A stretch of DNA of 64,000 nt from Acidobacteriota bacterium (GCA_039933785.1 JBDTNL010000014.1:1382-65381); one strand, 5' to 3'; counted from the stretch's first letter, positions 765 through 50,644 are shown. Notes: a model not told the origin generated them from the sequence alone. A program made the numbers and translations.

Positions 765-3700
765 CTACTGACGCTGCTCGCGGCGCAGACGCGTGACCGC
801 CACCAGCAGGAGACCGAGGATGAGGATCATGAATCCAGTCGGCGAGAGGGTGGGCACCGCCGCGACGGCGAGGCCGGGCACGTCGAACGAGGTCGGGTCG
901 TTGGCGCCGCCGACGCTCGGATCGTCGGTCGTGCCCGACGACTCATTGGTGCCATTCAGATCGGCGTCGAACGAGATCGTTCCCTGGTTGCTGATCGTGG
1001 TGCCCTCGGTTCCGGAGTTGATGGTGGCCGTGATGGTGATGGTGACGCTACCGCTGGCCGGCACGCTGCCATTCCAAGTCGCCGTGTTGGCCGCAGTCGC
1101 CGCGGTGCCGCTGGTGGCGCTTGCGCTCACCAGCGTGAGGCTCGCTGGCAGGGTGTCGGTGAACTCGTTGCCGGGGTTGTCGAGCGTCGCGGAGCCGCCG
1201 CTGTTCGAGAGCACGACGGTGTAGGTTACGGTGCCGCCGACGCTGAAGGTGCCGCTCACCGTCTTGGTGGCCGTCAACGCCGCGCTCGCGACGCCGAAGA
1301 CGGTCGGGTCCGAAGCGCCGCCGACGCCGGGATCATCCGTCGTGCCGGAGGTCTCATTGGAGCCGCTCACGTCGGCGTCGAAGGAGGTGGCTCCCTGGTT
1401 GCTGATGTTGGTGCCCTGAGCGCCCGCGTTGACGGTCGCCGTGATGGTGATCGTCACGCTGCCGCCGAGAGGGGCGAGTGCGCCGTCCCAATTTGCCGTG
1501 TTACCGGCGGTGGCGGCGGTTCCACTGGTGGCGTTTGCCGAGACCAGCGTGAGGCTGGCGGGCAGGGTATCGGTGAACTCAGGTCCGGCGTTGTCGGCCT
1601 GGGTGCCGGTGCCGTTGTTGGTCAGGGTGACGGTGTAGGTGATGGTGCCTCCGACGCTGAACGTACCGCTCACAGTCTTGGTCGCCGTGACCGCGACGGC
1701 GGAGGTGAAGCCGCTGCAGACGAAGTGCACTGGCGTGACGATGATCGACCAGGAGTTGAAGCTGGCGTTGCCCGCCGGGCAGCCGCCGGTCGCGGCAGAG
1801 AAATTGTCGGCGACGAGCGCCGACCATGTGCCCTTGGTGCTGCTGCCGTCGAAGCGCGAAAGGTCGCCGATCGGCTCGGCGGGCCGAGTGGGATCGACGA
1901 GGGCTGCCCATGGAGAGTTGTACACCGGCAGGAAGGACTGGGTGTAGGGGGCGTCGGCGCTCGTCGCCTGGACCATGTCGTTGGCGCTGACCGCTGGGAG
2001 GTCGTCATCGATCACCATGTTCGCGATGCCTGGTCCGCCGCAATCGTTCAGGCCGTCGAGCAAGCTCATGAGATCGGTGCCGAGGCCCGAGGGCGAGTGC
2101 AGCATGGCGCTCAGGTCGCCCACGGCCGGGCCGGTGACATCGTCGACGCGGAAGTCGATATCGGCGATCTGGAAATCGTCCGTCACGTTGATCTGATGCA
2201 GAGCGCCGCGCGGCCTGTTGTCGGTGACCACCAGGTCCGGATTGGGATCACCAGTGTAGGTGACCGCGGGGTCGGTGCCGCTCGGTGCGCCGATCCGCAC
2301 GCGGAACGTCGTCGAGGTCGTTCCGAGGCTCGAAGTCGTCGTCAAGGTGAAATCGATCGCGCTACCACAAAGCACTGTGGGCGCGACGGCAAAGAGGAAG
2401 CTGTCGCCGGTTGCCGAGCCTTGGGGCGCGATGGCGCCGTAGGTCGACGCATTGTCGAGGATCGAGATTCCGGGCGTCGAGGTGCTCAAGGTCGCGGTCG
2501 CGGAGGCAACGGCCTTGCCCGCGGCGCGCCATGGGTTCGTCAGCTTGACGGTGAGCAGGATCGGCTCGCCGGGGTCGATTGCGCCGTTGTTGTTGGCGGC
2601 GCTGTCGTCGATGGTGACATCGGTGCTGGGAGCCGCGACATCCAGGAACGGCGAACTGAATGATTCGTGGATACCCTCGTGGCTGCGGACGTATCTGCCG
2701 CTGACACGGTACGGAGCCGAGGCGCCGTAGCCGAGGCCGCGATCGGCGAAGCCATCCCAGATCGACGCCTCGTTGGCGCAGGCGTTGGTGACGCAATCGG
2801 CCTGGATGATGGCGTCTCGGGCATCGGTGAACGTCGGGTTGACCGGCGTCATCTTGAGGCCGTTAATCACGTCCTGCAGCATGGTCTGGTTGCCGGTCGG
2901 TACGTCGCCGTTGGCGCCGGCGGGATCGGCGATGACTCGAGCGCGCACACCCCAGAGGGTCAGCGCCCAGATCTCGCCGGAGTTGTGAACCTCGGCGCCG
3001 CCATTCAGGTTGAAGCCCAGCGGATCCGGAGCGATGCCCCCAGACAGGTCGTTGGTGACATCGTCGACGTCCGCCCAGGTCATCGGGTTGACGGTGTGGT
3101 CAGTGGTGTACGGGAAGCGGCGGATGCCGTACAGGTAGTTGTCGAGGAGGCCGCCCAGCTTGTAGGTGGCGTAGGCGCCGCTGCCGTAATGCCCGCTTGG
3201 ACCATCGGCGTTGGTGTTGTTGAGCAACGACATGGCCACGAAGTCGCTCCAACCTTCACCCATGCCACGAGCGGGATCCCAGTTGAGGCCCACGGCGTTT
3301 CCGACCAAGCGATTGCTCGTCCCGTGGGTGAGCTCGTGCATCAGGATTTCGGCATCCAGGTCACCGTCACGGTCGATCGTCGGTCCCGTGAAGCGAAACA
3401 TTTGAGCGCGCCCCGACGTGCCGTCCGGAGGAGTGGCGAAGTTTGCGTTATTGACTCCGGAGCCATCTTCGGCATCGGCATTGACTCGATCGTTGCCGAG
3501 GCCCATACCGCTGAAATTGGTCTGCTGGAAGTTCGCCGAGGCCTCGTCGAATCCTAGGGCGAAGAGCTTGTCGTGATACCAATTCGTCACATAGAACAGT
3601 TGGGTCACAGCGCCGCGGCGGTACTGGTCGATCGCCAGCGTACCGTTGTTGCCATTGCCCGTTGAGGTCTGGCCGGCTTCGGGGTTGCCTCCCTGTGGCG

Positions 3701-41613: not shown

Positions 41614-42270
41614 ATGGAGGCGGTCGCCGCAATCACCGCAGTCGATCACCTCCTGCTGGGCGCTCCGGATCTGGATCGTGGCGTTGCCTGGATCGAGGCG
41701 CGGGCCGGCGTTCGGGCTTCCGCCGGTGGCAGTCATCCCGGCAAGGGCACTCGCAACGCGCTCCTCGCGCTCGGCTCTCGCCGGTACCTCGAGATTCTGG
41801 CGCCGGATCCCGCGCAGCCAGCGATGTCGGGCCGCTTGGCGACCCGGCTCCAGCAAGTGGCCGGGCGCGAGCCGAGGCTCATCCTGTGGGCGGCGGCGAC
41901 AACCGATCTGGACGATTTGGTGCGCCGCGCCGGCGCCGCGAACCTCGAGCTGGAGGGCCCGCTCGCCGGATCGCGGTCGCGCCCCGACGGCGAGGTTGTC
42001 CGCTGGCGCGTCGCCATCGCGGTGGGCGCGACCGCCGACCGATTGGAGGGCGCCCTGCCCTTCTTCATCGAGTGGCAGACGCCGCTTCATCCTTCCCTGG
42101 ATTCTCCCGCCGGGTGCGATCTGCTGACCCTCGACCTTGCGAGCCCCTATCCCGACGAGCTCCGCGACGTCTTGGCCTGCCTCGGCATCGAGGCGGTCGT
42201 GCGGACCGCGAAACAGAACGGGCTCAGCGCCCGCTTGCAAACACCTCTCGGCGTTCTCGACCTCGAATAG
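41614..42270 (+). CDS. VOC (glyoxalase/bleomycin-resistance-like) family protein
   Basis: 218 aa; composition and length consistent with glyoxalase-like domain; starts 7 nt after RND stop. Confidence 0.55.
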   Translation: MEAVAAITAVDHLLLGAPDLDRGVAWIEARAGVRASAGGSHPGKGTRNALLALGSRRYLEILAPDPAQPAMSGRLATRLQQVAGREPRLILWAAATTDLDDLVRRAGAANLELEGPLAGSRSRPDGEVVRWRVAIAVGATADRLEGALPFFIEWQTPLHPSLDSPAGCDLLTLDLASPYPDELRDVLACLGIEAVVRTAKQNGLSARLQTPLGVLDLE

Positions 42271-42319
42271 CCTCCCGCGCGCCGCCGCGGCCCGGGAGCG
42301 CATCGGACCGGTTGCGTTT

Positions 42320-42343
42320 CGTTATATTTATTCTCATATATCG
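42320..42343. promoter_or_regulatory. AT-rich inverted repeat resembling a ModE operator, 32 nt upstream of modA
   Basis: CGTTATAT-ttattctc-ATATATCG (7/8 palindromic) in otherwise GC-rich DNA. Confidence 0.5.
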
Positions 42344-42374
42344 TAGAACCTTCGAAGGGATCGCAGAGCCGAGC

Positions 42375-43151
42375 ATGAAACGCACACCGACCCACTTTGC
42401 CCTCGTCGTTGCGTCGGCTCTCGCCACTCTTTCGAGCCTCGACGCGGCGGCGGCGAAGGCCGCCGATCTCACCGTGTTCGCCGCCGCCAGTCTGACCAAC
42501 GTCCTCCAGGAGCTCGGCACCGCGTACGAGACATCCGGCGGAGACCACGTCGTCTACAACTTCGGCGCGTCGAGCACCCTGGCGCGGCAGATCGACGAGG
42601 GCGCTCCGGCCGACGTCTTCTTCTGCGCCGACGAGGCCAAGATGGACGGCCTCGAGAAGCGGGGCGAGCTCGTCCCCGGCACGCGTTCGAGCCTGCTGTC
42701 GAATGCGCTCGTCATCGTGGTGGCGGCGGACTCCAAGATCAAGATCGCCAGTCCGCGCGACCTCACAACGTCGGCCATTCGTGTACTCGCCCTGGCCGAT
42801 CCGCAGACCGTACCGGCAGGGATCTACGCCAAGGCCTACCTACGCACCGCGGGCGTCTGGCACGACGTGATCGATAAAGTCGTGCCGACAGAGAACGTGC
42901 GCGCCGCCCTTTCCGCCGTCGAGGCTGGCAACGCCGAGGCGGCCATCGTCTACAGGACCGACGCCGCGATCTCGGTCAAGGTGCGCGTGGCCTTCGATGT
43001 TCCGCTGGTCGAGGCACCGAAAATCTCCTACCCCGTGGCGGTCCTCAAACAGAGCGCGAAGGTGGAAAACGCCAAGCGTTTCGTCGATTTCCTGAAATCG
43101 GCCGACGGGAAAGCCGCTTTCCGTCGTTACGGCTTCATCGTTCCCGACTGA
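42375..43151 (+). CDS. modA: Molybdate ABC transporter substrate-binding protein
   Basis: Signal peptide; ModA-type fold motifs (LTVFAAASL, NFGASS..L..QI..GAPADVF); no modB/modC follow. Confidence 0.85.
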   Translation: MKRTPTHFALVVASALATLSSLDAAAAKAADLTVFAAASLTNVLQELGTAYETSGGDHVVYNFGASSTLARQIDEGAPADVFFCADEAKMDGLEKRGELVPGTRSSLLSNALVIVVAADSKIKIASPRDLTTSAIRVLALADPQTVPAGIYAKAYLRTAGVWHDVIDKVVPTENVRAALSAVEAGNAEAAIVYRTDAAISVKVRVAFDVPLVEAPKISYPVAVLKQSAKVENAKRFVDFLKSADGKAAFRRYGFIVPD

Positions 43152-43195: not shown

Positions 43196-43741
43196 ATGAG
43201 CGCAAGCGAACAAATCACCCTGGGTGGCGGGTGTTTCTGGTGCATCGAGGCGGTGTTCGACGAGTTGCGCGGTGTCACGCGAGTGGAGTCCGGCTATGCC
43301 GGCGGCCAGCTCGCGAATCCGACCTACCGTGAGGTCTGCGACGGTGACACGGGCCACACCGAGGTGGTCCGGGTCACCTTCGATCCTGCGGAGATCTCGC
43401 TCGCCGACTTGCTGGGGGTCTTCTTCGTGGCCCACGATCCGACGACGCTCAATCGCCAGGGCGCCGATGCCGGCACGCAATATCGCTCAGCGATCTACTA
43501 TCTGAACGCCGAGCAGAAGCAAACCGCAGAGGCGGTCATGCGCGAAGTGGCGAGCTCCGCCCTGTGGGGCAAGGCGCCGCTCACGACCGAGCTGGCGCCG
43601 CTGGGCGACTTCTATCCCGCCGAGGACTACCATCGGGACTACTACCGCAACAATCCGAACCAGGGCTACTGCCGTGCGGTGATCGAGCCCAAGGTGGCTA
43701 AGGTGCGGAAGGAATTCCGCGATCGTCTCAAAAGAGCTTGA
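43196..43741 (+). CDS. msrA: Peptide methionine sulfoxide reductase A
   Basis: GCFWC active-site motif; RBS GAGAGGAG. Confidence 0.9.
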   Translation: MSASEQITLGGGCFWCIEAVFDELRGVTRVESGYAGGQLANPTYREVCDGDTGHTEVVRVTFDPAEISLADLLGVFFVAHDPTTLNRQGADAGTQYRSAIYYLNAEQKQTAEAVMREVASSALWGKAPLTTELAPLGDFYPAEDYHRDYYRNNPNQGYCRAVIEPKVAKVRKEFRDRLKRA

Positions 43742-43751
43742 GTTTTTGAGC

Positions 43752-43780
43752 TTGACAAGCTCGCGCCCCGCACCCACAAT
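43752..43780 (+). promoter_or_regulatory. Sigma-70-like promoter of the sulfate-assimilation leader transcript
   Basis: TTGACA-17 nt-CACAAT; predicted start ~43787, 3 nt before leader ATG (leaderless). Confidence 0.45.
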
Positions 43781-43789
43781 GCGCGCACG

Positions 43790-43903
43790 ATGCTGAATCG
43801 TGAAGTGCCCCCCTCATCGACCTACTCGCTGGCGCTCGTTTTGAGCTCCATGTGCTGTATGTGTCGCTGTATGACCCGACCCAGGGGTGCGCTCCGCGTG
43901 TAG
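43790..43903 (+). CDS. Candidate leader peptide (37 aa) rich in Cys and Met codons
   Basis: MLNREVPPSSTYSLALVLSSMCCMCRCMTRPRGALRV; 4 Cys + 3 Met in 8 consecutive codons; sits between promoter and terminator upstream of cysH. Confidence 0.5.
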   Translation: MLNREVPPSSTYSLALVLSSMCCMCRCMTRPRGALRV

Positions 43904-43947
43904 CTAGTCCATAAGATCCTGTCGAGCTTCAACCGACTGAATCCAAC

Positions 43948-43986
43948 GGCCCGCGGGTGCACCCCGCGGGCCGTTTTTGTTTTTCT
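43948..43986 (+). terminator. Intrinsic terminator / attenuator hairpin upstream of cysH
   Basis: GGCCCGCGGG-tgcac-CCCGCGGGCC (perfect 10 bp) followed by GTTTTTGTTTTTCT; then RBS AAGGAG and cysH GTG. Confidence 0.7.
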
Positions 43987-44009
43987 GATGCCGCCTCCAA
44001 GGAGATTTC

Positions 44010-44750
44010 GTGCCGGAACCTAGAAGACGAAGTGAGCTGTCGTTGGAATCGCCGGAGAACTCTTCGGCCGAGGCCTTGGTGGACTGGGTGGTGCGCCGTT
44101 TTCCGCGTCAGCGCATCGTCGCCACCACCGGCTTCGGTATGGAGGGCTGCGTGCTCATCGACCTCCTGTCACGCTTGCCGGTGCCGCCGCGGGTGGTCTA
44201 TCTCGACACCCACTTCCTGTTTCCCGAGACCTACTCCCTGCGCGACCGACTGGGGCGGCGCTACCCGCGAGTTCAGCTGGTCAACGCCGGCACGCGGCTG
44301 ACCGCCGAGCAGCAGGAGGCGGGCTTCGGGCCGCGCCTGTGGGAGACCGAGCCCGACCTCTGCTGCCGCTTGCGCAAGGTCGATCCCCTGCGCGGGGCTC
44401 TGCGACGCATGGACGTCTGGATCACCGGCCTGCGGCGCGGCCAGTCGGAGAGCCGGTCGGTCCTGCGCACTGTCGACTGGGACTGGCAGTACCAGGTGGT
44501 GAAGGTGAGCCCGCTCGCCGCGTGGTCGAGGGAGCAGGTCTGGAGCTACGTCCAGGAGCACGATGTGCCCTACAACACGCTCCATGAGCAGGGCTATCCC
44601 TCGATCGGCTGCACGCATTGCACGCGGCCCGTTGCGGGCGCCGCGATCGGCAGCTACTCGCGCGAGGGTCGCTGGACGGGCACCGGCAAGACCGAATGCG
44701 GCCTGCATCGGGCGCCGCCCGGGAGCGCGGCGTCTGAAGGACGGCAATGA
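44010..44750 (+). CDS. cysH: Phosphoadenosine-phosphosulfate/adenylylsulfate reductase (thioredoxin-dependent), Fe-S type
   Basis: PAPS-reductase fold; CC...SIGCTHCT cysteine cluster typical of APS reductases. Confidence 0.85.
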   Translation: MPEPRRRSELSLESPENSSAEALVDWVVRRFPRQRIVATTGFGMEGCVLIDLLSRLPVPPRVVYLDTHFLFPETYSLRDRLGRRYPRVQLVNAGTRLTAEQQEAGFGPRLWETEPDLCCRLRKVDPLRGALRRMDVWITGLRRGQSESRSVLRTVDWDWQYQVVKVSPLAAWSREQVWSYVQEHDVPYNTLHEQGYPSIGCTHCTRPVAGAAIGSYSREGRWTGTGKTECGLHRAPPGSAASEGRQ

Positions 44751-46504
44751 GCGCCCCGGCGATCGAGAAGGAGTCGAGCGCGGAAGGCATCAAGCGCGAG
44801 AGCGCCGGCCTGCGCGGCGACATCGCGGCCGAGCTCGCCGCACCCGGCAATCACTTCGAGGAGCACGACAAGCTGCTGCTCAAGTTTCACGGCATCTACC
44901 AACAGGACGATCGGGACTCGCGGGCCCAGGCTCGGGCGCGGGAAGGTGGAGGCAAGAGCTACTCGTTCATGGTGCGAGTGGCGATTCCGGGCGGTGCGCT
45001 CGATGCCGAGCAGTACCTCGAGCTCGACCGCCTCGCTGGGCAATTCGCGAACGGTTCGCTGCGGCTCACCACGCGGCAAGGCGTGCAGTTTCACGGCGTG
45101 CTCAAGGGCGATCTGAAGCCGGCGATCTCGCGCATCGATCAGGTGCTGCTCACTACGCTCGCGGCGTGCGGCGACGTTAGGCGAAATGTGATGGCTTGCC
45201 CGGCACCGCTTGCGGACCCGGCGCATCGCGCGGTGCAGGAGCTCGCGCGCGCCATCGCCCGCGACCTCGAGCCACGGAGCCGCGCCTACCATCAGATCTG
45301 GCTGGACGGGGAGCGGCTCCAAGCGGAGTCGCCCGGCGAAACCGTCGAGCCCTTCTATGGCACGCAGTACCTGCCGCGCAAGTTCAAGATTGCGGTGGCG
45401 CTCGACCGCGATAACTGCGTCGACGTGTACGCCTCGGACTGCGGGCTCATCGGGGTGAGCGAAGGCGGCCACGGTGGCCTGGTGATGGGCTACAACCTCA
45501 TCGCCGGCGGCGGTCTCGGCCTGACGCACAACAAGCCGGATACGTTCGCGCGACTCGCGACCGTTCTGGGTTCCGTCGCCCCGGTGCAGGCCGTCGAGGC
45601 GGTGCGCGCGGTGGCGGCGATCTTCCGCGACCACGGCAATCGCGCGGATCGACGGCACGCGCGGCTCAAGTACTTGATCGAGGAGTGGGGCGTCGCCAAG
45701 TTTCGGGCGGAGCTGCTCGTCCGCCTCGGTTGGCGCCTGCGCGAGCCGCTGCCGGTGGGCGAGCCCGACCAACACGATCACCTCGGCACGCACGAGCAGG
45801 GCGATGGGAAGGTTTTCCTCGGGGTGCACGTCGAGAGCGGCCGCATCGCCGATCGCGGCGAGAGCTTGCTGCGCACCGGACTCCGTGCGGTGATCGAGCG
45901 CTTTCGACCGGGTGTCCGCGTGACGCCGATGCAGAGCCTGCTGCTCACCGATCTCGAACCATCGGACGTTGCTGGGATTCGAGCTGAGCTCGCGGCGCAC
46001 GGCGTTGCCGACGTCGTCGAGACCCCGGGCTTGAGCGCGGTGCGGCGCTACGCGATGGCCTGCCCGGCGCTGCCGACATGTGGGCTGGCGCTTACCGATG
46101 CCGAACGCGCCTTGCCTGGCGTAGTGACCGACCTCGAGCGTGAGCTCGGGCAGCTGGGCGTCGCCGACCTGCCGCTCACCGTGCGGATGACCGGCTGCCC
46201 GAACGGCTGCGCGCGGCCGTACAACGCCGACATTGGAATCGTCGGCCGCAAACCGGGGGTGTACCACGTGCTGGTCGGCGGTGGGCTGAGTGGCGATCGA
46301 TTGGCGGATCTCTTCGCCGCCGACGTACCGGTCGAACGCATCGGCGAGGTCCTCCGGCCGCTCTTCAAACGGTTCGCCGCCGAACGCCAGCCTGGCGAAG
46401 GGTTGAGCGACTACTACCAGCGAGCGTTGGGCAGGGTGGAGGAGCGCCACCTGCTCACCGGCCGCGAGGCACCTACCGCATCGCGATTCGCGGAGCCCTC
46501 GTGA
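44747..46504 (+). CDS. Sulfite reductase hemoprotein (siroheme/Fe4S4, nitrite/sulfite reductase family)
   Basis: ATGA overlap with cysH; NiR/SiR ferredoxin-like half domains, C-terminal cysteine motif MTGCPNGCARP. Confidence 0.85.
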   Translation: MSAPAIEKESSAEGIKRESAGLRGDIAAELAAPGNHFEEHDKLLLKFHGIYQQDDRDSRAQARAREGGGKSYSFMVRVAIPGGALDAEQYLELDRLAGQFANGSLRLTTRQGVQFHGVLKGDLKPAISRIDQVLLTTLAACGDVRRNVMACPAPLADPAHRAVQELARAIARDLEPRSRAYHQIWLDGERLQAESPGETVEPFYGTQYLPRKFKIAVALDRDNCVDVYASDCGLIGVSEGGHGGLVMGYNLIAGGGLGLTHNKPDTFARLATVLGSVAPVQAVEAVRAVAAIFRDHGNRADRRHARLKYLIEEWGVAKFRAELLVRLGWRLREPLPVGEPDQHDHLGTHEQGDGKVFLGVHVESGRIADRGESLLRTGLRAVIERFRPGVRVTPMQSLLLTDLEPSDVAGIRAELAAHGVADVVETPGLSAVRRYAMACPALPTCGLALTDAERALPGVVTDLERELGQLGVADLPLTVRMTGCPNGCARPYNADIGIVGRKPGVYHVLVGGGLSGDRLADLFAADVPVERIGEVLRPLFKRFAAERQPGEGLSDYYQRALGRVEERHLLTGREAPTASRFAEPS

Positions 46505-47322
46505 TCGCCGGCCAGGTGTCTTCCCGGTGTTCCCGGCCGAGCGCCCTCGTGCTGGCGGCCCACGGCTGCGGCGACGCCTCCGATGCCAATGCACGTGTGC
46601 GCCTCCTGGCACGGCTGCTCGCGAGCCAGGAGCCCGGGCGACAAGTGGTCGTCGCGTTCGAGCTCGGGTCGCCGACGTTCCGCGACGCGCTCGGCGAGCT
46701 CGACCTTGAACGAGCTGGACATCGTGTGCAAGTGGTGCCGATCATGGCGGCGGCCGGCTTCTTCACCCGACAGCGTCTGCCTGAGGCATTCGCCGCCCGC
46801 GCCCAGGCTCTTCATGTGGAGGTGCGCATCACGACTCCCTTGGGGAGCCACGCGGCCGTGATCTTGGGGGCCGTGGCCCGGACGGCGGCGCGCTTGCGGT
46901 CGCTTGGACCGGACGTTGCCGCTGGCCACACCGCGGTACTGGTGGCGGGTCACGGGACCGTCCGCGATTCTCGCAGCGGCGCCTCGACCATGAGCCTGGT
47001 GGGCGAGCTGCGTCGCTCCCAGCCTGGCCTTCGCGTCGTTGGAGCGTTCCTGGATCAAGAGCCGAGGCTGGAAACGGTGGCTGCCGAGCTCTCGGCGAGG
47101 CGGCTGATCGTGGTGCCCTACCTGTTCGGCGGCGGGGCTCATCTGCAGCGGGACCTCGGAGCGCGGCTGGACGGCAGCGGGCCGGAAGTCTTGATCGAGC
47201 CAGCGCTATCGGACGCTCCGGCGCTACCGGCAGCGCTCGCCGCAGTCACCGATCTCGCTGTCTGGAGGGAACCCCGCACCGTCGTCGCACCGATGGCTCG
47301 GTGGCTCAGGAGGGTGTCGTGA
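46501..47322 (+). CDS. cbiX: Sirohydrochlorin ferrochelatase (CbiX/SirB, tandem-domain form)
   Basis: GTGA overlap; two CbiX-like halves LVLAAHG... and VLVAGHG... Confidence 0.75.
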   Translation: MIAGQVSSRCSRPSALVLAAHGCGDASDANARVRLLARLLASQEPGRQVVVAFELGSPTFRDALGELDLERAGHRVQVVPIMAAAGFFTRQRLPEAFAARAQALHVEVRITTPLGSHAAVILGAVARTAARLRSLGPDVAAGHTAVLVAGHGTVRDSRSGASTMSLVGELRRSQPGLRVVGAFLDQEPRLETVAAELSARRLIVVPYLFGGGAHLQRDLGARLDGSGPEVLIEPALSDAPALPAALAAVTDLAVWREPRTVVAPMARWLRRVS

Positions 47323-48860
47323 CCGCCGGCAGTGTCAGCCTGGTCGGCGCCGGCCCGGGCGATCCCGGCCTCATCACCCGCCGAGGGCTCGAGCTCCTGC
47401 GCGCGGCGCAAGTCGTGGTGCACGATCGCCTGGTGGGGCGCGAGCTGCTCCTGGAGGCTCCGCCCGAGGCGCGCCTCGTCGATGCCGGGAAGGCGCCCGG
47501 GCGTGTTCCGTTGGACCAGGTGACGATCAACGATTTGCTGATTGCGGAGGCGCGGTCCGGACATCGCGTGGTGCGCCTGAAGGGCGGCGATCCCTTCGTC
47601 TTTGGCCGCGGGTTCGAAGAGCTCCTAGCCTGCCGCGAAGCCGGCGTGCGGTGCGAAGTCGTGCCGGGAGTGAGCAGCGCGATCGCCGGACCCGCCGCGG
47701 CCGGCATTCCGGTCACCTTGCGTGGCGTGGCGCGCAGCTTCGCGGTCATGACCGCCCAGACGGGCGCCAGCGCCTTGGCCGATGCCCAGGGCGGTCCCAA
47801 CTGGCCCGCTCTGGCTCGCACCGACACACTCGTGATCCTGATGGGCGGCACACAGCTCAAGGGGGTCCGGGGCGCGCTGCTCGACGCGGGCAGGTCGCCC
47901 CAGACGCCGGTCGCGATCGTCGAGTCGGCGACCTTGCCACGGCAACGGGTGACGCGCGCGACGCTCGCAACTCTCGGACGAGTGGAGCCGGGAGCGGGAG
48001 CCCCGGCGGTGCTGGTGGTAGGGGAGGTGGCCCGCTTCGCGAGAACGCACGAAGACGGCGAAAGCCGAGCGCTCACGGGCCGGCGAGTTGTCGTCACTCG
48101 GCCCCTCCGTTCGGCGTCAGCGGTCGCGGGGCAACTCAGGCGCCGAGGCGCGGAGGTGATCGTCTGCCCGCTTATCCGCATCGAATACCGCAAACCACGC
48201 AAGCCGCACCATCTCGAGCGCGAAATTTTCAGCGCCGCGGTCCAGAGCGGCCAGGAACCGTGGATCGTGTTCACTTCGCGACACGGTGTAGTTGGCTTCT
48301 GGGCTGCCCTGCGTGCTGCCGGCGGGGACGCGCGCTCGTGCGCGGGCGCTCGTCTGGCCGTAGTCGGACCGCGGACCGGCGAGGCGCTCGGCGAGATCGG
48401 CCTGACGCCCGACCTCGTCGCCGATCCGGGCCGCGCCGAAGCCCTGATCGAAATCCTCGCGCCGCAAGTCGCCGGAGCGGAGGTCCTCTTTCCCTGTGGC
48501 ACGCTGGCCCGCCGCGAGGTGGCGGCGGGACTGCGGGCGGCCGGCGCCAAGGTGCGCGAGCTGGTGGTCTACAACACCTTGCCCGAGCGCCCGGACGCGG
48601 CGGCTGCGGCCGAGATTCAACGTGGCGTCGACGCGGTCCTGTTCCACAGCCCAAGCGCGGTTCGGGCGTGGGTCGCCGCGCGGCTGGCGCCCGTTCGGGT
48701 CCTGGTTGCCTGCCTCGGAGAAGAAACGGCGGACGTCGCCCGGCGATCGGGTCTGGAGCCCGAAATCGTCGCCGAGGAGCACTCCGATGACGGGCTGATC
48801 GCCGCTCTCGAAGCCCACTTCGCGCCGTCAACGGCGCGGAGCCAGGCGAGCCGCACCTGA
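47319..48860 (+). CDS. Uroporphyrinogen-III C-methyltransferase fused to uroporphyrinogen-III synthase (CobA-HemD)
   Basis: GTG 47319 after RBS GGAGGG; LVGAGPGDPGL...VVRLKGGDPFVFGRG methyltransferase motifs; C-terminal HemD-like half. Confidence 0.85.
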   Translation: MTAGSVSLVGAGPGDPGLITRRGLELLRAAQVVVHDRLVGRELLLEAPPEARLVDAGKAPGRVPLDQVTINDLLIAEARSGHRVVRLKGGDPFVFGRGFEELLACREAGVRCEVVPGVSSAIAGPAAAGIPVTLRGVARSFAVMTAQTGASALADAQGGPNWPALARTDTLVILMGGTQLKGVRGALLDAGRSPQTPVAIVESATLPRQRVTRATLATLGRVEPGAGAPAVLVVGEVARFARTHEDGESRALTGRRVVVTRPLRSASAVAGQLRRRGAEVIVCPLIRIEYRKPRKPHHLEREIFSAAVQSGQEPWIVFTSRHGVVGFWAALRAAGGDARSCAGARLAVVGPRTGEALGEIGLTPDLVADPGRAEALIEILAPQVAGAEVLFPCGTLARREVAAGLRAAGAKVRELVVYNTLPERPDAAAAAEIQRGVDAVLFHSPSAVRAWVAARLAPVRVLVACLGEETADVARRSGLEPEIVAEEHSDDGLIAALEAHFAPSTARSQASRT

Positions 48861-48928
48861 CGCGTTGCCTGATGGATTGACCGCTGGACCATCCGGCGCA
48901 TCCGCCGCGTGGATTTGCACTGGAGATC

Positions 48929-50644
48929 ATGATGTCGATTCTCGAAGCGAGTACCAAGACCGAGCTTCGCTCCCTGCTCGTCGGGGCCGAAGCCGCAACC
49001 GCGCTGCGCAACGAGGCGCTGCATTTGAAATCCTGGGACCTGGATTCTCGACAGACCTGCGATCTCGAGCTTCTGCTCAACGGCGGATTCACTCCGCTCG
49101 GTGGCTTCCTGGGGCGCCAAGACTACGAATCGGTGCTTCAACGATCGCGGCTGGTCGACGGCACGCTGTGGCCGATTCCCGTCACCCTCGACGTCGATAA
49201 GGAGTTCGCCGCCGGTCTTGCGCTCGGCGAGCGCATCGTGCTCCGCCACGCCGAGGGCATGGCGCTCGCGGTGCTCACGGTGAGCGATCGCTGGACACCG
49301 GATCGGGCGGCGGAGGCTCGCGCCGTCCTGGGCAGCGACGATGAAGCGCATCCGGAAGCCTTCCGGTTACTCAGGGTCTCTCGCGCTGTGTATTTGGGGG
49401 GCAGGGTCGAAGGGATCGAAGCATCGCCGCACCATACGTTTCGGCACCTGCGGCAGGGGCCGGGCGAGGTGCGCGCCGAGATCGAGCGCCGCGGCCTCGA
49501 GCGCGTGGTCGCCTTCCAAACCCGCAATCCCCTGCATCGCGCGCACGTCGAGCTCATTCGGCGAGCGGCCGAGGCAGTCGACGCGACCGTGCTGCTGCAC
49601 CCCGTGGTGGGCAGGACGAAACCCGGCGACATCGACTACTTCACTCGCGTGCGCTGCTATCAGGCCGTGCTGCCACATCTTGGAAGCGGCGCCTTGCTTA
49701 GCCTGCTTCCGCTCGCCATGCGCATGGCCGGTCCGCGGGAGGCGGTGTGGCACGCCATCTTGCGGCGGAACTTCGGCGCGACTCACTTCGTGGTTGGGCG
49801 CGATCACGCGGGACCGGGGAGAGACAGCGCCGGCCGGCCGTTCTACCATCCCGACGCGGCCCGGCAGCTCGCCGAGCAGCACGCGCCGGAGGTCGGCATC
49901 GAGATCATCTCGTCGGAGGAGCTGGTCTATTGCGGCGAACTCGGCGACTACCTGCCGGGCTCGCAGGTGAAGCCGGGCAGCGAAGTGCTGTCGCTTTCGG
50001 GCACGGAGTTCCGCAAGCGTCTGCGCGAAGGGGCCGAGATTCCGGAATGGTTCTCCTACGAAGAGGTGGTGCGGGTGCTTCGCCGCCAACATCCACCGCG
50101 GAGCGCCCAGGGCTTCACCGTCTTCTTCACCGGGCTTTCGGGCGCGGGCAAGTCGACGATCGCCAACATCCTGGTCGCCAGGCTTACCGAGGAGGGCAGC
50201 CGGCCGGTGACGCTTCTCGACGGCGATCTGGTGCGCAAGAACCTGTCGAGCGAGCTCGGCTTTTCACGCCAGCACCGCGATCTCAACATCCTCCGCATAG
50301 GTTTCGTCGCCAACGAGATCACCCGGAATGGCGGCGCCGCGGTGTGCGCCCCGATCGCGCCCTACGCCCCGGCCCGGCGACAGGTGCGCCAGTGCATCGA
50401 GGAGCACGGCGGCTTCGTCGAGGTCCACGTTGCCACCTCGATCGAGGTCTGCGAAAGCCGCGACCGCAAGGGGCTCTACGCCAAGGCGCGCGCGGGACTG
50501 GTGAAGGGATTCACGGGTATCGACGATCCGTACGACGTGCCCGAGCACGCCGAGCTGGTCATTGACGCGGGCAGCGTGCCGCCGGAAGAGGCCGCGGAGC
50601 AGATCCTGCGGTTCCTAGTGCACGAGGGCTACTTGCCGCTGTAG
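48929..50644 (+). CDS. Bifunctional sulfate adenylyltransferase (ATP sulfurylase) / adenylylsulfate kinase
   Basis: QTRN and GRDHAG sulfurylase motifs; C-terminal P-loop FTGLSGAGKSTIA of APS kinase. Confidence 0.9.
   Translation: MMSILEASTKTELRSLLVGAEAATALRNEALHLKSWDLDSRQTCDLELLLNGGFTPLGGFLGRQDYESVLQRSRLVDGTLWPIPVTLDVDKEFAAGLALGERIVLRHAEGMALAVLTVSDRWTPDRAAEARAVLGSDDEAHPEAFRLLRVSRAVYLGGRVEGIEASPHHTFRHLRQGPGEVRAEIERRGLERVVAFQTRNPLHRAHVELIRRAAEAVDATVLLHPVVGRTKPGDIDYFTRVRCYQAVLPHLGSGALLSLLPLAMRMAGPREAVWHAILRRNFGATHFVVGRDHAGPGRDSAGRPFYHPDAARQLAEQHAPEVGIEIISSEELVYCGELGDYLPGSQVKPGSEVLSLSGTEFRKRLREGAEIPEWFSYEEVVRVLRRQHPPRSAQGFTVFFTGLSGAGKSTIANILVARLTEEGSRPVTLLDGDLVRKNLSSELGFSRQHRDLNILRIGFVANEITRNGGAAVCAPIAPYAPARRQVRQCIEEHGGFVEVHVATSIEVCESRDRKGLYAKARAGLVKGFTGIDDPYDVPEHAELVIDAGSVPPEEAAEQILRFLVHEGYLPL

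Follow-up and report, generated by a model that had tools for sequence, protein, structure and literature searches.

The sulfate-assimilation operon in a 64,000-nucleotide (nt) stretch of DNA from an Acidobacteriota bacterium (GCA_039933785.1, JBDTNL010000014.1:1382-65381), here called the window, is preceded by a short leader in which a run of cysteine and methionine codons is followed by a terminator-like hairpin. This leader, a candidate transcription attenuator, was pointed out in an earlier note made from the sequence alone and is the subject of the present analysis. The operon, located like the whole leader on the plus strand, extends from 44010 to 50644, and Pfam matches were obtained for all five of its genes: cysH (44010-44750, PAPS reductase), the sulfite reductase gene sir (44747-46504), cbiX (46501-47322, CbiX), a cobA/hemD fusion (47301-48860, methylase/HemD fusion) and a sat/cysC fusion (48929-50644, ATP-sulfurylase/APS-kinase fusion). 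Pfam and the sequence agree with the gene order given in the earlier note, including the Shine-Dalgarno sequence AAGGAG, which is found at 43999-44004 ahead of a GTG codon at 44010 (cysH start region, 43999-44012). The gene upstream is msrA (43196-43741, Pfam PMSR), and the leader lies in the 270-nt spacer between msrA and cysH.

Architecture of the cysH leader

Transcription of the leader would be driven by a sigma-70-type promoter (43752-43780), in which a -35 box TTGACA (43752-43757) and a -10 box CACAAT (43775-43780) are separated by a 17-nt spacer, just as the earlier note described it. In a consensus scan, it is the sole promoter-like site between 43000 and 45000, the shuffle average being 0.2. 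The ATG of the leader open reading frame (ORF) lies 9 nt past the -10 box, and the transcription start expected near A43787 would leave a leader of about 3 nt before it. The ORF itself (43790-43903), placed between the promoter and cysH, consists of 37 codons, encodes the peptide MLNREVPPSSTYSLALVLSSMCCMCRCMTRPRGALRV, ends with the stop codon TAG at 43901-43903 and has no Shine-Dalgarno sequence. It appears to be leaderless or nearly so. The term "leaderless", as previously applied to it, is approximate, given the few bases expected ahead of the ATG.

The ORF contains the codon run M-C-C-M-C-R-C-M (43850-43873), the proposed stall site, in which four Cys and three Met codons fall within eight; both the ORF and the run have the form and position first reported for them. 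The Cys codons are located at 43853, 43856, 43862 and 43868, within codon positions 22-27 of the ORF. With the whole window translated in all six frames (127,996 codons), just seven eight-codon stretches contain at least four Cys codons, and the leader run alone among them has a strong hairpin with a T-run within 170 nt. By itself, a Cys run in the spacer is modestly unlikely to have arisen by chance (roughly p = 0.02), and the recurrence of the run at orthologous loci removes the doubt over a chance origin. A search for a second copy of the leader in the window, including the regions upstream of msrA and of a solute-binding protein gene, found none.

Downstream of the ORF, a GC-rich hairpin formed by GGCCCGCGGG and CCCGCGGGCC (43948-43972) is followed by a T5-G-T5 tract (43974-43984). 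The hairpin, described earlier as a stem of 10 base pairs (bp), is in fact longer and extends to 13 bp (43945-43975), with an energy of -28.4 kcal/mol; in a consensus scan, 11 of its pairs are G-C, the loop measures 5 nt and TTTGTTTTT comes next. When the leader is divided into the four segments of an attenuator, segment 3 (43945-43965) runs from the 5' arm of the terminator (43945-43957) through its loop (43958-43962) into the first 3 nt of the 3' arm, and segment 4 (43963-43984) comprises the 3' arm (43963-43975) and the T-tract. Segment 3 can pair alternatively with segment 4, forming the terminator, or with segment 2, forming an antiterminator.

Segment 2 (43883-43905) holds the leader stop codon and provides the 5' strand of the antiterminator (43883-43902) as well as the 3' strand of a further helix with segment 1, the 1:2 helix. 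According to RNAduplex, 43883-43902 pairs with 43948-43965 over about 16 bp at -31.1 kcal/mol, against -28.4 kcal/mol for the terminator, and none of 300 shuffles gave a duplex as good (z = -3.45). The pairing of GGGGTGC (43884-43890) with GCACCCC (43959-43965), which the earlier note had proposed as the antiterminator, does exist, but it is the core of this longer helix and not a helix of 7 bp. Segment 1 (43854-43877) is the Cys/Met run, which in an RNAalifold consensus of the eight loci of the window's subtype forms the 5' strand of the 1:2 helix, pairing with 43885-43904; the local 1:2 hairpin has an energy of -20.1 kcal/mol. This helix, which involves the regulatory codons, would complete the classical four-segment design, a conclusion held with moderate confidence.

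Between the stop codon and the terminator lies a linker hairpin (43914-43943) with the core GUCG/CGAC (43921-43924 with 43934-43937), which forms in the terminated fold as well as in the antiterminated one. Its sequence is nearly invariant in the subtype even though CysH is just 70% identical, and it could act as a polymerase pause signal or as a spacer or scaffold.

Conservation and folding of the leader

Relatives were found by a scan for CysH with one genome per species, after which 500 nt upstream were read. The genome scan yielded relatives with at most 62% identity, named Planctomycetota, Phycisphaerae and Isosphaeraceae, plus two Acidobacteriota, and neither the genome nor the metagenome scan gave a relative above 64%. 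Closer CysH homologues, with 93% and 70-72% identity, came from a protein search and their contigs. About 30 distinct loci share the same layout ahead of cysH or cysD-cysN-cysH: a TTGACN promoter, a near ATG, a short ORF with an in-frame Cys run, a GC-rich hairpin with a T-run, and then cysH. This layout is present at 16 of the 17 nearest genome loci (L001-L014, L016 and L017), at all 12 nearest metagenome loci and at seven more loci reached via the closer CysH homologues. Its carriers are mostly named Planctomycetota or Phycisphaerae, together with some Acidobacteriota and one Gemmatimonadales. The recurrence of a Cys/Met mini-ORF and a terminator upstream of orthologous operons, which the earlier note had named as a test of its proposal, is clear from these roughly 30 loci.

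The Cys runs of the relatives, such as CACCCCCC, CARCCCCCCC, VCMCCC and MCCMCMC, contain 3-8 Cys codons. A regular-expression search found 19 loci with TTGACN, 16-18 nt, TAnnnT and, 6-10 nt later, the ATG that opens the Cys ORF; because of this short distance from the -10 box, the ORF would begin at or within a few bases of the expected 5' end. The locus whose CysH cluster is named Gemmatimonadales has MACCCMA and a terminator. In Luteitalea, a leader MAVVCRCACCCP... and a terminator stand ahead of cysD-cysN-cysH (L018:440-660, Luteitalea sp., Cys leader MAVVCRCACCCPRTNGVLALPVCCSHHTSR); because the leader precedes cysD-cysN there and cysH comes third, the leader tracks the operon and not cysH itself. 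The element is absent from 62 more distant cysH loci (Bacillaceae, Actinomycetes and others). A composite scan of all collected DNA returned essentially these leaders only, with one match in the window. Matches in Robertmurraya (L023, L024) were rejected, being an out-of-frame reading of the end of a tuf-like gene combined with the terminator of that gene.

Two metagenome-assembled genomes of Isosphaeraceae (L014, L017) show a variant in which a promoter-proximal Cys-run ORF, about 300 nt upstream of cysH, has no hairpin and T-run after it. Such leaders may apply the same principle at the level of translation or in a Rho-dependent manner.

The subtype to which the window belongs consists of eight loci (WIN, the window itself, with L161, L162, L163, L164, L166, L167 and L001) that have in common CTTGACAAG at the -35 box and the sequence CACG ATG following the -10 box. 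Owing to in-frame indels, the N-terminal part of the ORF differs among them both in sequence and in length (31-42 codons), but the Cys run is kept in the frame that the promoter-proximal ATG opens; this preservation of the frame gives indirect support for coding. The alternating Cys/Met codon run is followed by a nearly invariant stretch that reaches to the T-tract.

The -35 hexamer of the window also lies at the centre of a perfect 7+1+7 palindrome, GAGCTTG-A-CAAGCTC (43748-43762), whose core CTTGACAAG is retained in every subtype relative. In addition, GAGCTTGA is directly repeated, with copies at 43734 and 43748. The palindrome could be a transcription-factor site, providing a second control layer, or an extended -35/UP region.

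The terminator stem covaries, with 7 of its 10 pairs changed on both sides among 19 loci, which none of 500 shuffles reached. Segment 2 prefers the terminator of its own locus, with a mean pairing energy of -21.4 kcal/mol as opposed to -16.6 kcal/mol for the terminators of other loci (0 of 20,000 permutations, p < 5e-5); in the window, the values are -31.1 and -14.3 kcal/mol. In the larger subtype, 79% of the core antiterminator (CCUG-A-CGG with CCGCAGG) is paired, compared with 30-49% when the strands are slid against each other, and the antiterminator of the window's subtype is 84% paired.

The spacing of the antiterminator strand is conserved. In the window, the strand begins 15 nt past the first base of the last Cys codon, and 13 of 14 loci have it 13-21 nt beyond that codon; as modelled, a ribosome stalled there would have its leading edge just short of the strand. 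The effect of the ribosome was followed in folds of truncated transcripts, since equilibrium folds with ribosome masks cannot show a switch. With a stalled ribosome (RNA from 43883), the antiterminator is the minimum-energy fold for transcripts ending at 43960-43971, reaching -34.6 kcal/mol, and the terminator wins only from a transcript end at 43973. When only the RNA from 43916 onwards is folded, as for a ribosome at the stop codon, nucleation of the terminator occurs at 43967. All 14 folded loci show the same contrast: in the stalled state, 7-12 bases of the terminator 5' arm are sequestered at -22 to -37 kcal/mol, whereas the stop-codon state has weak structure only (-1.5 to -13 kcal/mol). 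The geometry claimed in the earlier note, in which a stall at the Cys codons leaves the strand free and a ribosome that has reached the stop codon masks it, holds in silico for the window and the 13 other folded loci.

Four loci (L011, L012, L013 and L092) have two separate Cys runs in one leader ORF, for example CCCCAACCC...CECCCSC. In these leaders, the predicted antiterminator strand lies between the runs, and a stall in the second run would cover the strand.

Proposed mechanism and alternative explanations

These features suggest that the leader is a ribosome-mediated transcription attenuator, through which the assimilatory sulfate-reduction operon would respond to how much Cys-tRNA(Cys) is available. 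We assign this reading a probability of about 0.8; the sequence elements, their conservation and the alternative pairings are computational results, and we infer leader translation, ribosome stalling and the cysteine response from the sequence. In the proposed mechanism, transcription would begin a few bases before the ATG at 43790, and a ribosome would load at the 5' end and follow the polymerase. When cysteine is plentiful, this ribosome would cross the Cys/Met run, reach the TAG at 43901 and cover segment 2 (43883-43902), which would re-pair with the Cys/Met run in the 1:2 helix once the ribosome is released. With the ribosome at the stop codon or released, the terminator 5' arm would be free, the 13-bp hairpin (43945-43975) would form and transcription would stop before cysH. 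When cysteine is scarce, the ribosome would stall at the Cys codons (43853-43870), melting segment 1 and exposing segment 2. As soon as transcription has produced the 5' arm and loop of the terminator, the exposed segment 2 would pair with them, no terminator would form, and the polymerase would read into cysH-sir-cbiX-cobA/hemD-sat/cysC.

Two or three Met codons are interleaved in the Cys run at all eight loci of the subtype, and one occurs in about a third of the other loci. A more far-reaching and rather doubtful interpretation is a bivalent sulfur-amino-acid attenuator, in which one leaderless ORF would sense both Met-tRNA and Cys-tRNA, corresponding to both end products of sulfate assimilation, and which would define a widespread unrecorded regulon across Planctomycetota, Acidobacteriota and Gemmatimonadota. 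The AUG triplets belong to the conserved 1:2 pairing of CUGUAUGUG with CGCGUGUAG, and this pairing alone could explain the retention of the Met codons.

Several points weigh against the attenuator reading. At equilibrium, the full leader folds into the terminator in every ribosome state; the switch must therefore be kinetic, and the model depends on kinetic competition. The fold with ribosome occupancy that the earlier note had suggested thus shows no switch at equilibrium, whereas the folds of truncated transcripts do show one. Covariation of the 1:2 helix (95.6% paired, four pairs changed on both sides, 1 of 500 shuffles reaching the observed value) was tested on a structure derived from the same alignment, and in the window alone the 1:2 hairpin is no more stable than shuffles (z = -0.5). 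A single-sequence fold offers a rival partner for segment 2, namely codons 1-9 of the ORF, at -26.6 kcal/mol, and a ribosome stalled at the Cys run would leave these codons uncovered. This pairing was rejected as the functional 1:2 helix, as in the relatives it is neither conserved nor better than shuffles; the conserved partner of segment 2 is the Cys/Met run. Column-wise covariation of the antiterminator is not significant in the alignment of the larger subtype or in that of the window's subtype, because both strands are conserved in sequence, and the comparison of pairing within and between loci was used in its place. Finally, L168 and L171, whose CysH is 65% identical, are without the element, and L014 and L017 have the Cys ORF but no clear terminator.

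The last two loci also bear on the possibility that the control is translational, the poly-Cys ORF gating the cysH ribosome-binding site and the hairpin being incidental or only ending msrA transcripts. Leaderless poly-Cys short ORFs act in this way in Mycobacterium smegmatis (bioRxiv 10.1101/834739), the Cys ORFs of L014 and L017 without clear terminators would suit such control, and a small local CCUCC/GGAG pairing touches the Shine-Dalgarno sequence of cysH. Nearly all loci nevertheless have a strong T-tract terminator with a covarying stem after the ORF, and segment 2 fits the terminator of its own locus. Moreover, in a fold of 43845-44035, the Cys tract pairs with segment 2 and not with the Shine-Dalgarno sequence 130 nt away, and we consider translational control improbable. 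That the hairpin is a plain msrA terminator next to a coincidental Cys run is hardly credible, even though no other terminator lies between the msrA stop (43741) and the hairpin in the window. A promoter separates msrA from the ORF, the upstream gene differs among loci (DUF2339, PilZ, hydrolase, glycosyltransferase), and msrA in L161 has an extra terminator of its own while the whole leader is still kept; as far as the comparative data go, this explanation is already contradicted.

Two further explanations were weighed. The ORF might merely adjoin cysH and encode a small Cys-rich protein with a function of its own (in metal binding, in redox reactions or as the precursor of a peptide), which would agree with its own promoter and terminator and with the C-terminal GALRV conserved in the subtype. 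Its conserved C-terminal codons coincide with segment 2, however, and beyond the Cys run there is no peptide similarity across subtypes, the length ranging from 27 to 54 residues. The CCUGACGG motif is read in different frames in L004/L016 and L003/L005, which indicates that the constraint acts on the RNA, and the element remains linked to sulfate-assimilation genes whatever gene lies upstream; a small-protein function is very improbable. Alternatively, the terminator might be driven by a ligand- or protein-binding RNA leader, such as a novel riboswitch or the target of an RNA-binding regulator, with the ORF left untranslated. Segment 2, the linker and the terminator are indeed more conserved than the adjoining protein-coding sequence, and the linker hairpin is conserved as well. 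What is always kept, however, is a TGY codon run in frame with the promoter-proximal ATG, across TGC/TGT interchanges and in-frame indels, and both segment 2 and the stop codon lie at distances from the Cys run that fit a ribosome footprint. With no Rfam match either, an RNA leader of this kind appears quite improbable.

Relation to known systems and neighbouring features

Classical leader-peptide attenuators control the trp, his, leu, thr, ilv and pheA operons of Proteobacteria. The element described here resembles them in its short ORF rich in codons for the pathway product, its mutually exclusive 1:2, 2:3 and 3:4 helices, the location of the regulatory codons in segment 1, the predicted masking of segment 2 by a terminating ribosome and the terminator before the first gene. 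Unlike in those systems, cysteine would be sensed and sulfate assimilation targeted, and the ORF starts within about 3 nt of the inferred 5' end with no Shine-Dalgarno sequence. The hosts are also different (Planctomycetota, Acidobacteriota and Gemmatimonadota-type bacteria), and there is no sequence or Rfam relationship. In Firmicutes, S-box (SAM-I) riboswitches and T-box leaders likewise choose between terminator and antiterminator on Cys and Met genes, but their sensor is an S-adenosylmethionine aptamer or an uncharged tRNA and not a translating ribosome, and neither is matched here in Rfam. At the gathering score, Rfam 15 assigned no family (SAM, T-box, His_leader or others) to the window or to 19 related loci, and at a permissive threshold it gave only terminator-driven chance matches. 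The only His_leader match was discarded, as it lies on the wrong strand and scores 17 bits against a threshold of 49.

Cysteine-codon leaders have been described before. In M. smegmatis, leaderless poly-Cys short ORFs were shown experimentally to attenuate the translation of downstream genes: the Cys tract pairs with the Shine-Dalgarno region of the gene that follows and sequesters it, and a terminator plays no part. According to the authors, cysteine attenuation mediated by an ORF had not been described earlier (Canestrari et al. 2020, bioRxiv 10.1101/834739, Mol Microbiol 114:93). The present leaders share with the mycobacterial class a Cys-run short ORF before cysteine-metabolism genes, stalling as the presumed signal and an occurrence at several independent loci. 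They lack the defining trait of that class, since the Cys tract pairs with the antiterminator strand and not with the Shine-Dalgarno sequence, and a T-tract terminator follows. Their leaderless status is suggested by the ATG lying 9 nt past the -10 box (6-10 nt in the relatives). Candidate Cys leader peptides were also proposed for cys and cbs operons of Mycobacterium, Propionibacterium acnes and Bifidobacterium longum, where no conserved terminator hairpin was found and Rho-dependent termination was suggested (Seliverstov et al. 2005, PMC1262725). Those leaders likewise have Cys-codon runs near the stop codon ahead of cysteine genes and were found by comparative genomics, but only here are a terminator and an antiterminator explicit and conserved.

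Two further examples precede cysS, the gene for the Cys-tRNA synthetase. In Rhodobacterales, the motif uORFC-8-2 carries a pair of tandem Cys codons around positions 14-15 and an intrinsic terminator; its two stems end in a U-run (Brewer et al. 2021, PMC8632094). Leaderless leader peptides of Deinococcus deserti include a 10-residue peptide with two Cys residues before cysS (de Groot et al. 2014, PMC4007540). As in the present leaders, Cys codons of an upstream ORF are followed by an intrinsic terminator, stalling is predicted and, in Deinococcus, the ORF is leaderless. The leaders described here have 4-8 Cys codons in place of two, joined by Met codons in the window's subtype, belong to other phyla and another sequence family, and would control a biosynthetic sulfate-reduction operon. 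The window's leader is set apart from uORFC-8-2 by the description of that motif, having cysH downstream and four Cys codons at positions 22-27.

Searches of the literature on Planctomycetes and on leader attenuation before sulfate assimilation, in which subscription journals were incompletely covered, did not find the element. The concept of a Cys-codon leader is already known, and a terminator-based family before sulfate assimilation appears to be undescribed. Judged from comparative evidence, the element would be a new, widespread and leaderless leader-peptide attenuator specific to cysteine and sulfate assimilation, whose mechanism itself is not new. To our knowledge, the only form of cysteine attenuation demonstrated so far is translational control in mycobacteria, while that of cysS has been predicted, and hardly anything is known of how genes are regulated in Planctomycetota and uncultured lineages of Acidobacteriota and Gemmatimonadota. 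For these little-studied lineages, the leader offers a concrete candidate for a cis-acting regulator of a central pathway. It would extend classical terminator-based attenuation to cysteine and sulfate assimilation and provide a leaderless form of the four-segment design, with ribosome loading at the extreme 5' end of the transcript. As a compact and sequence-diverse family absent from Rfam, it could also be turned into a covariance model for genome annotation, which could mark sulfur-regulated operons in metagenomes and flag unannotated short ORFs as regulatory and not protein-coding.

Some features of the surrounding DNA remain to be mentioned. In L161, the closest relative (CysH 93% identical), an extra GC hairpin GGCGCGCCCCTCGGGGCGCGCC lies between msrA and the leader promoter (L161:330-420). 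The window is without this hairpin (compare 43741-43752), and msrA read-through transcripts probably end at the attenuator terminator there. Further upstream in the window, an ORF of 421 amino acids (41886-43151) overlaps a glyoxalase-like ORF (41614-42270), and its solute-binding domain SBP_bac_11 begins only at residue 195; translation probably starts within the ORF, near 42400. Ahead of this ORF there is no leader with a Cys run. In L003, a cobalamin riboswitch (1827-2011, minus strand, 116.7 bits) is located about 700 nt upstream of the Cys leader; because it lies on the opposite strand, the upstream neighbour would be a divergent B12-regulated gene.

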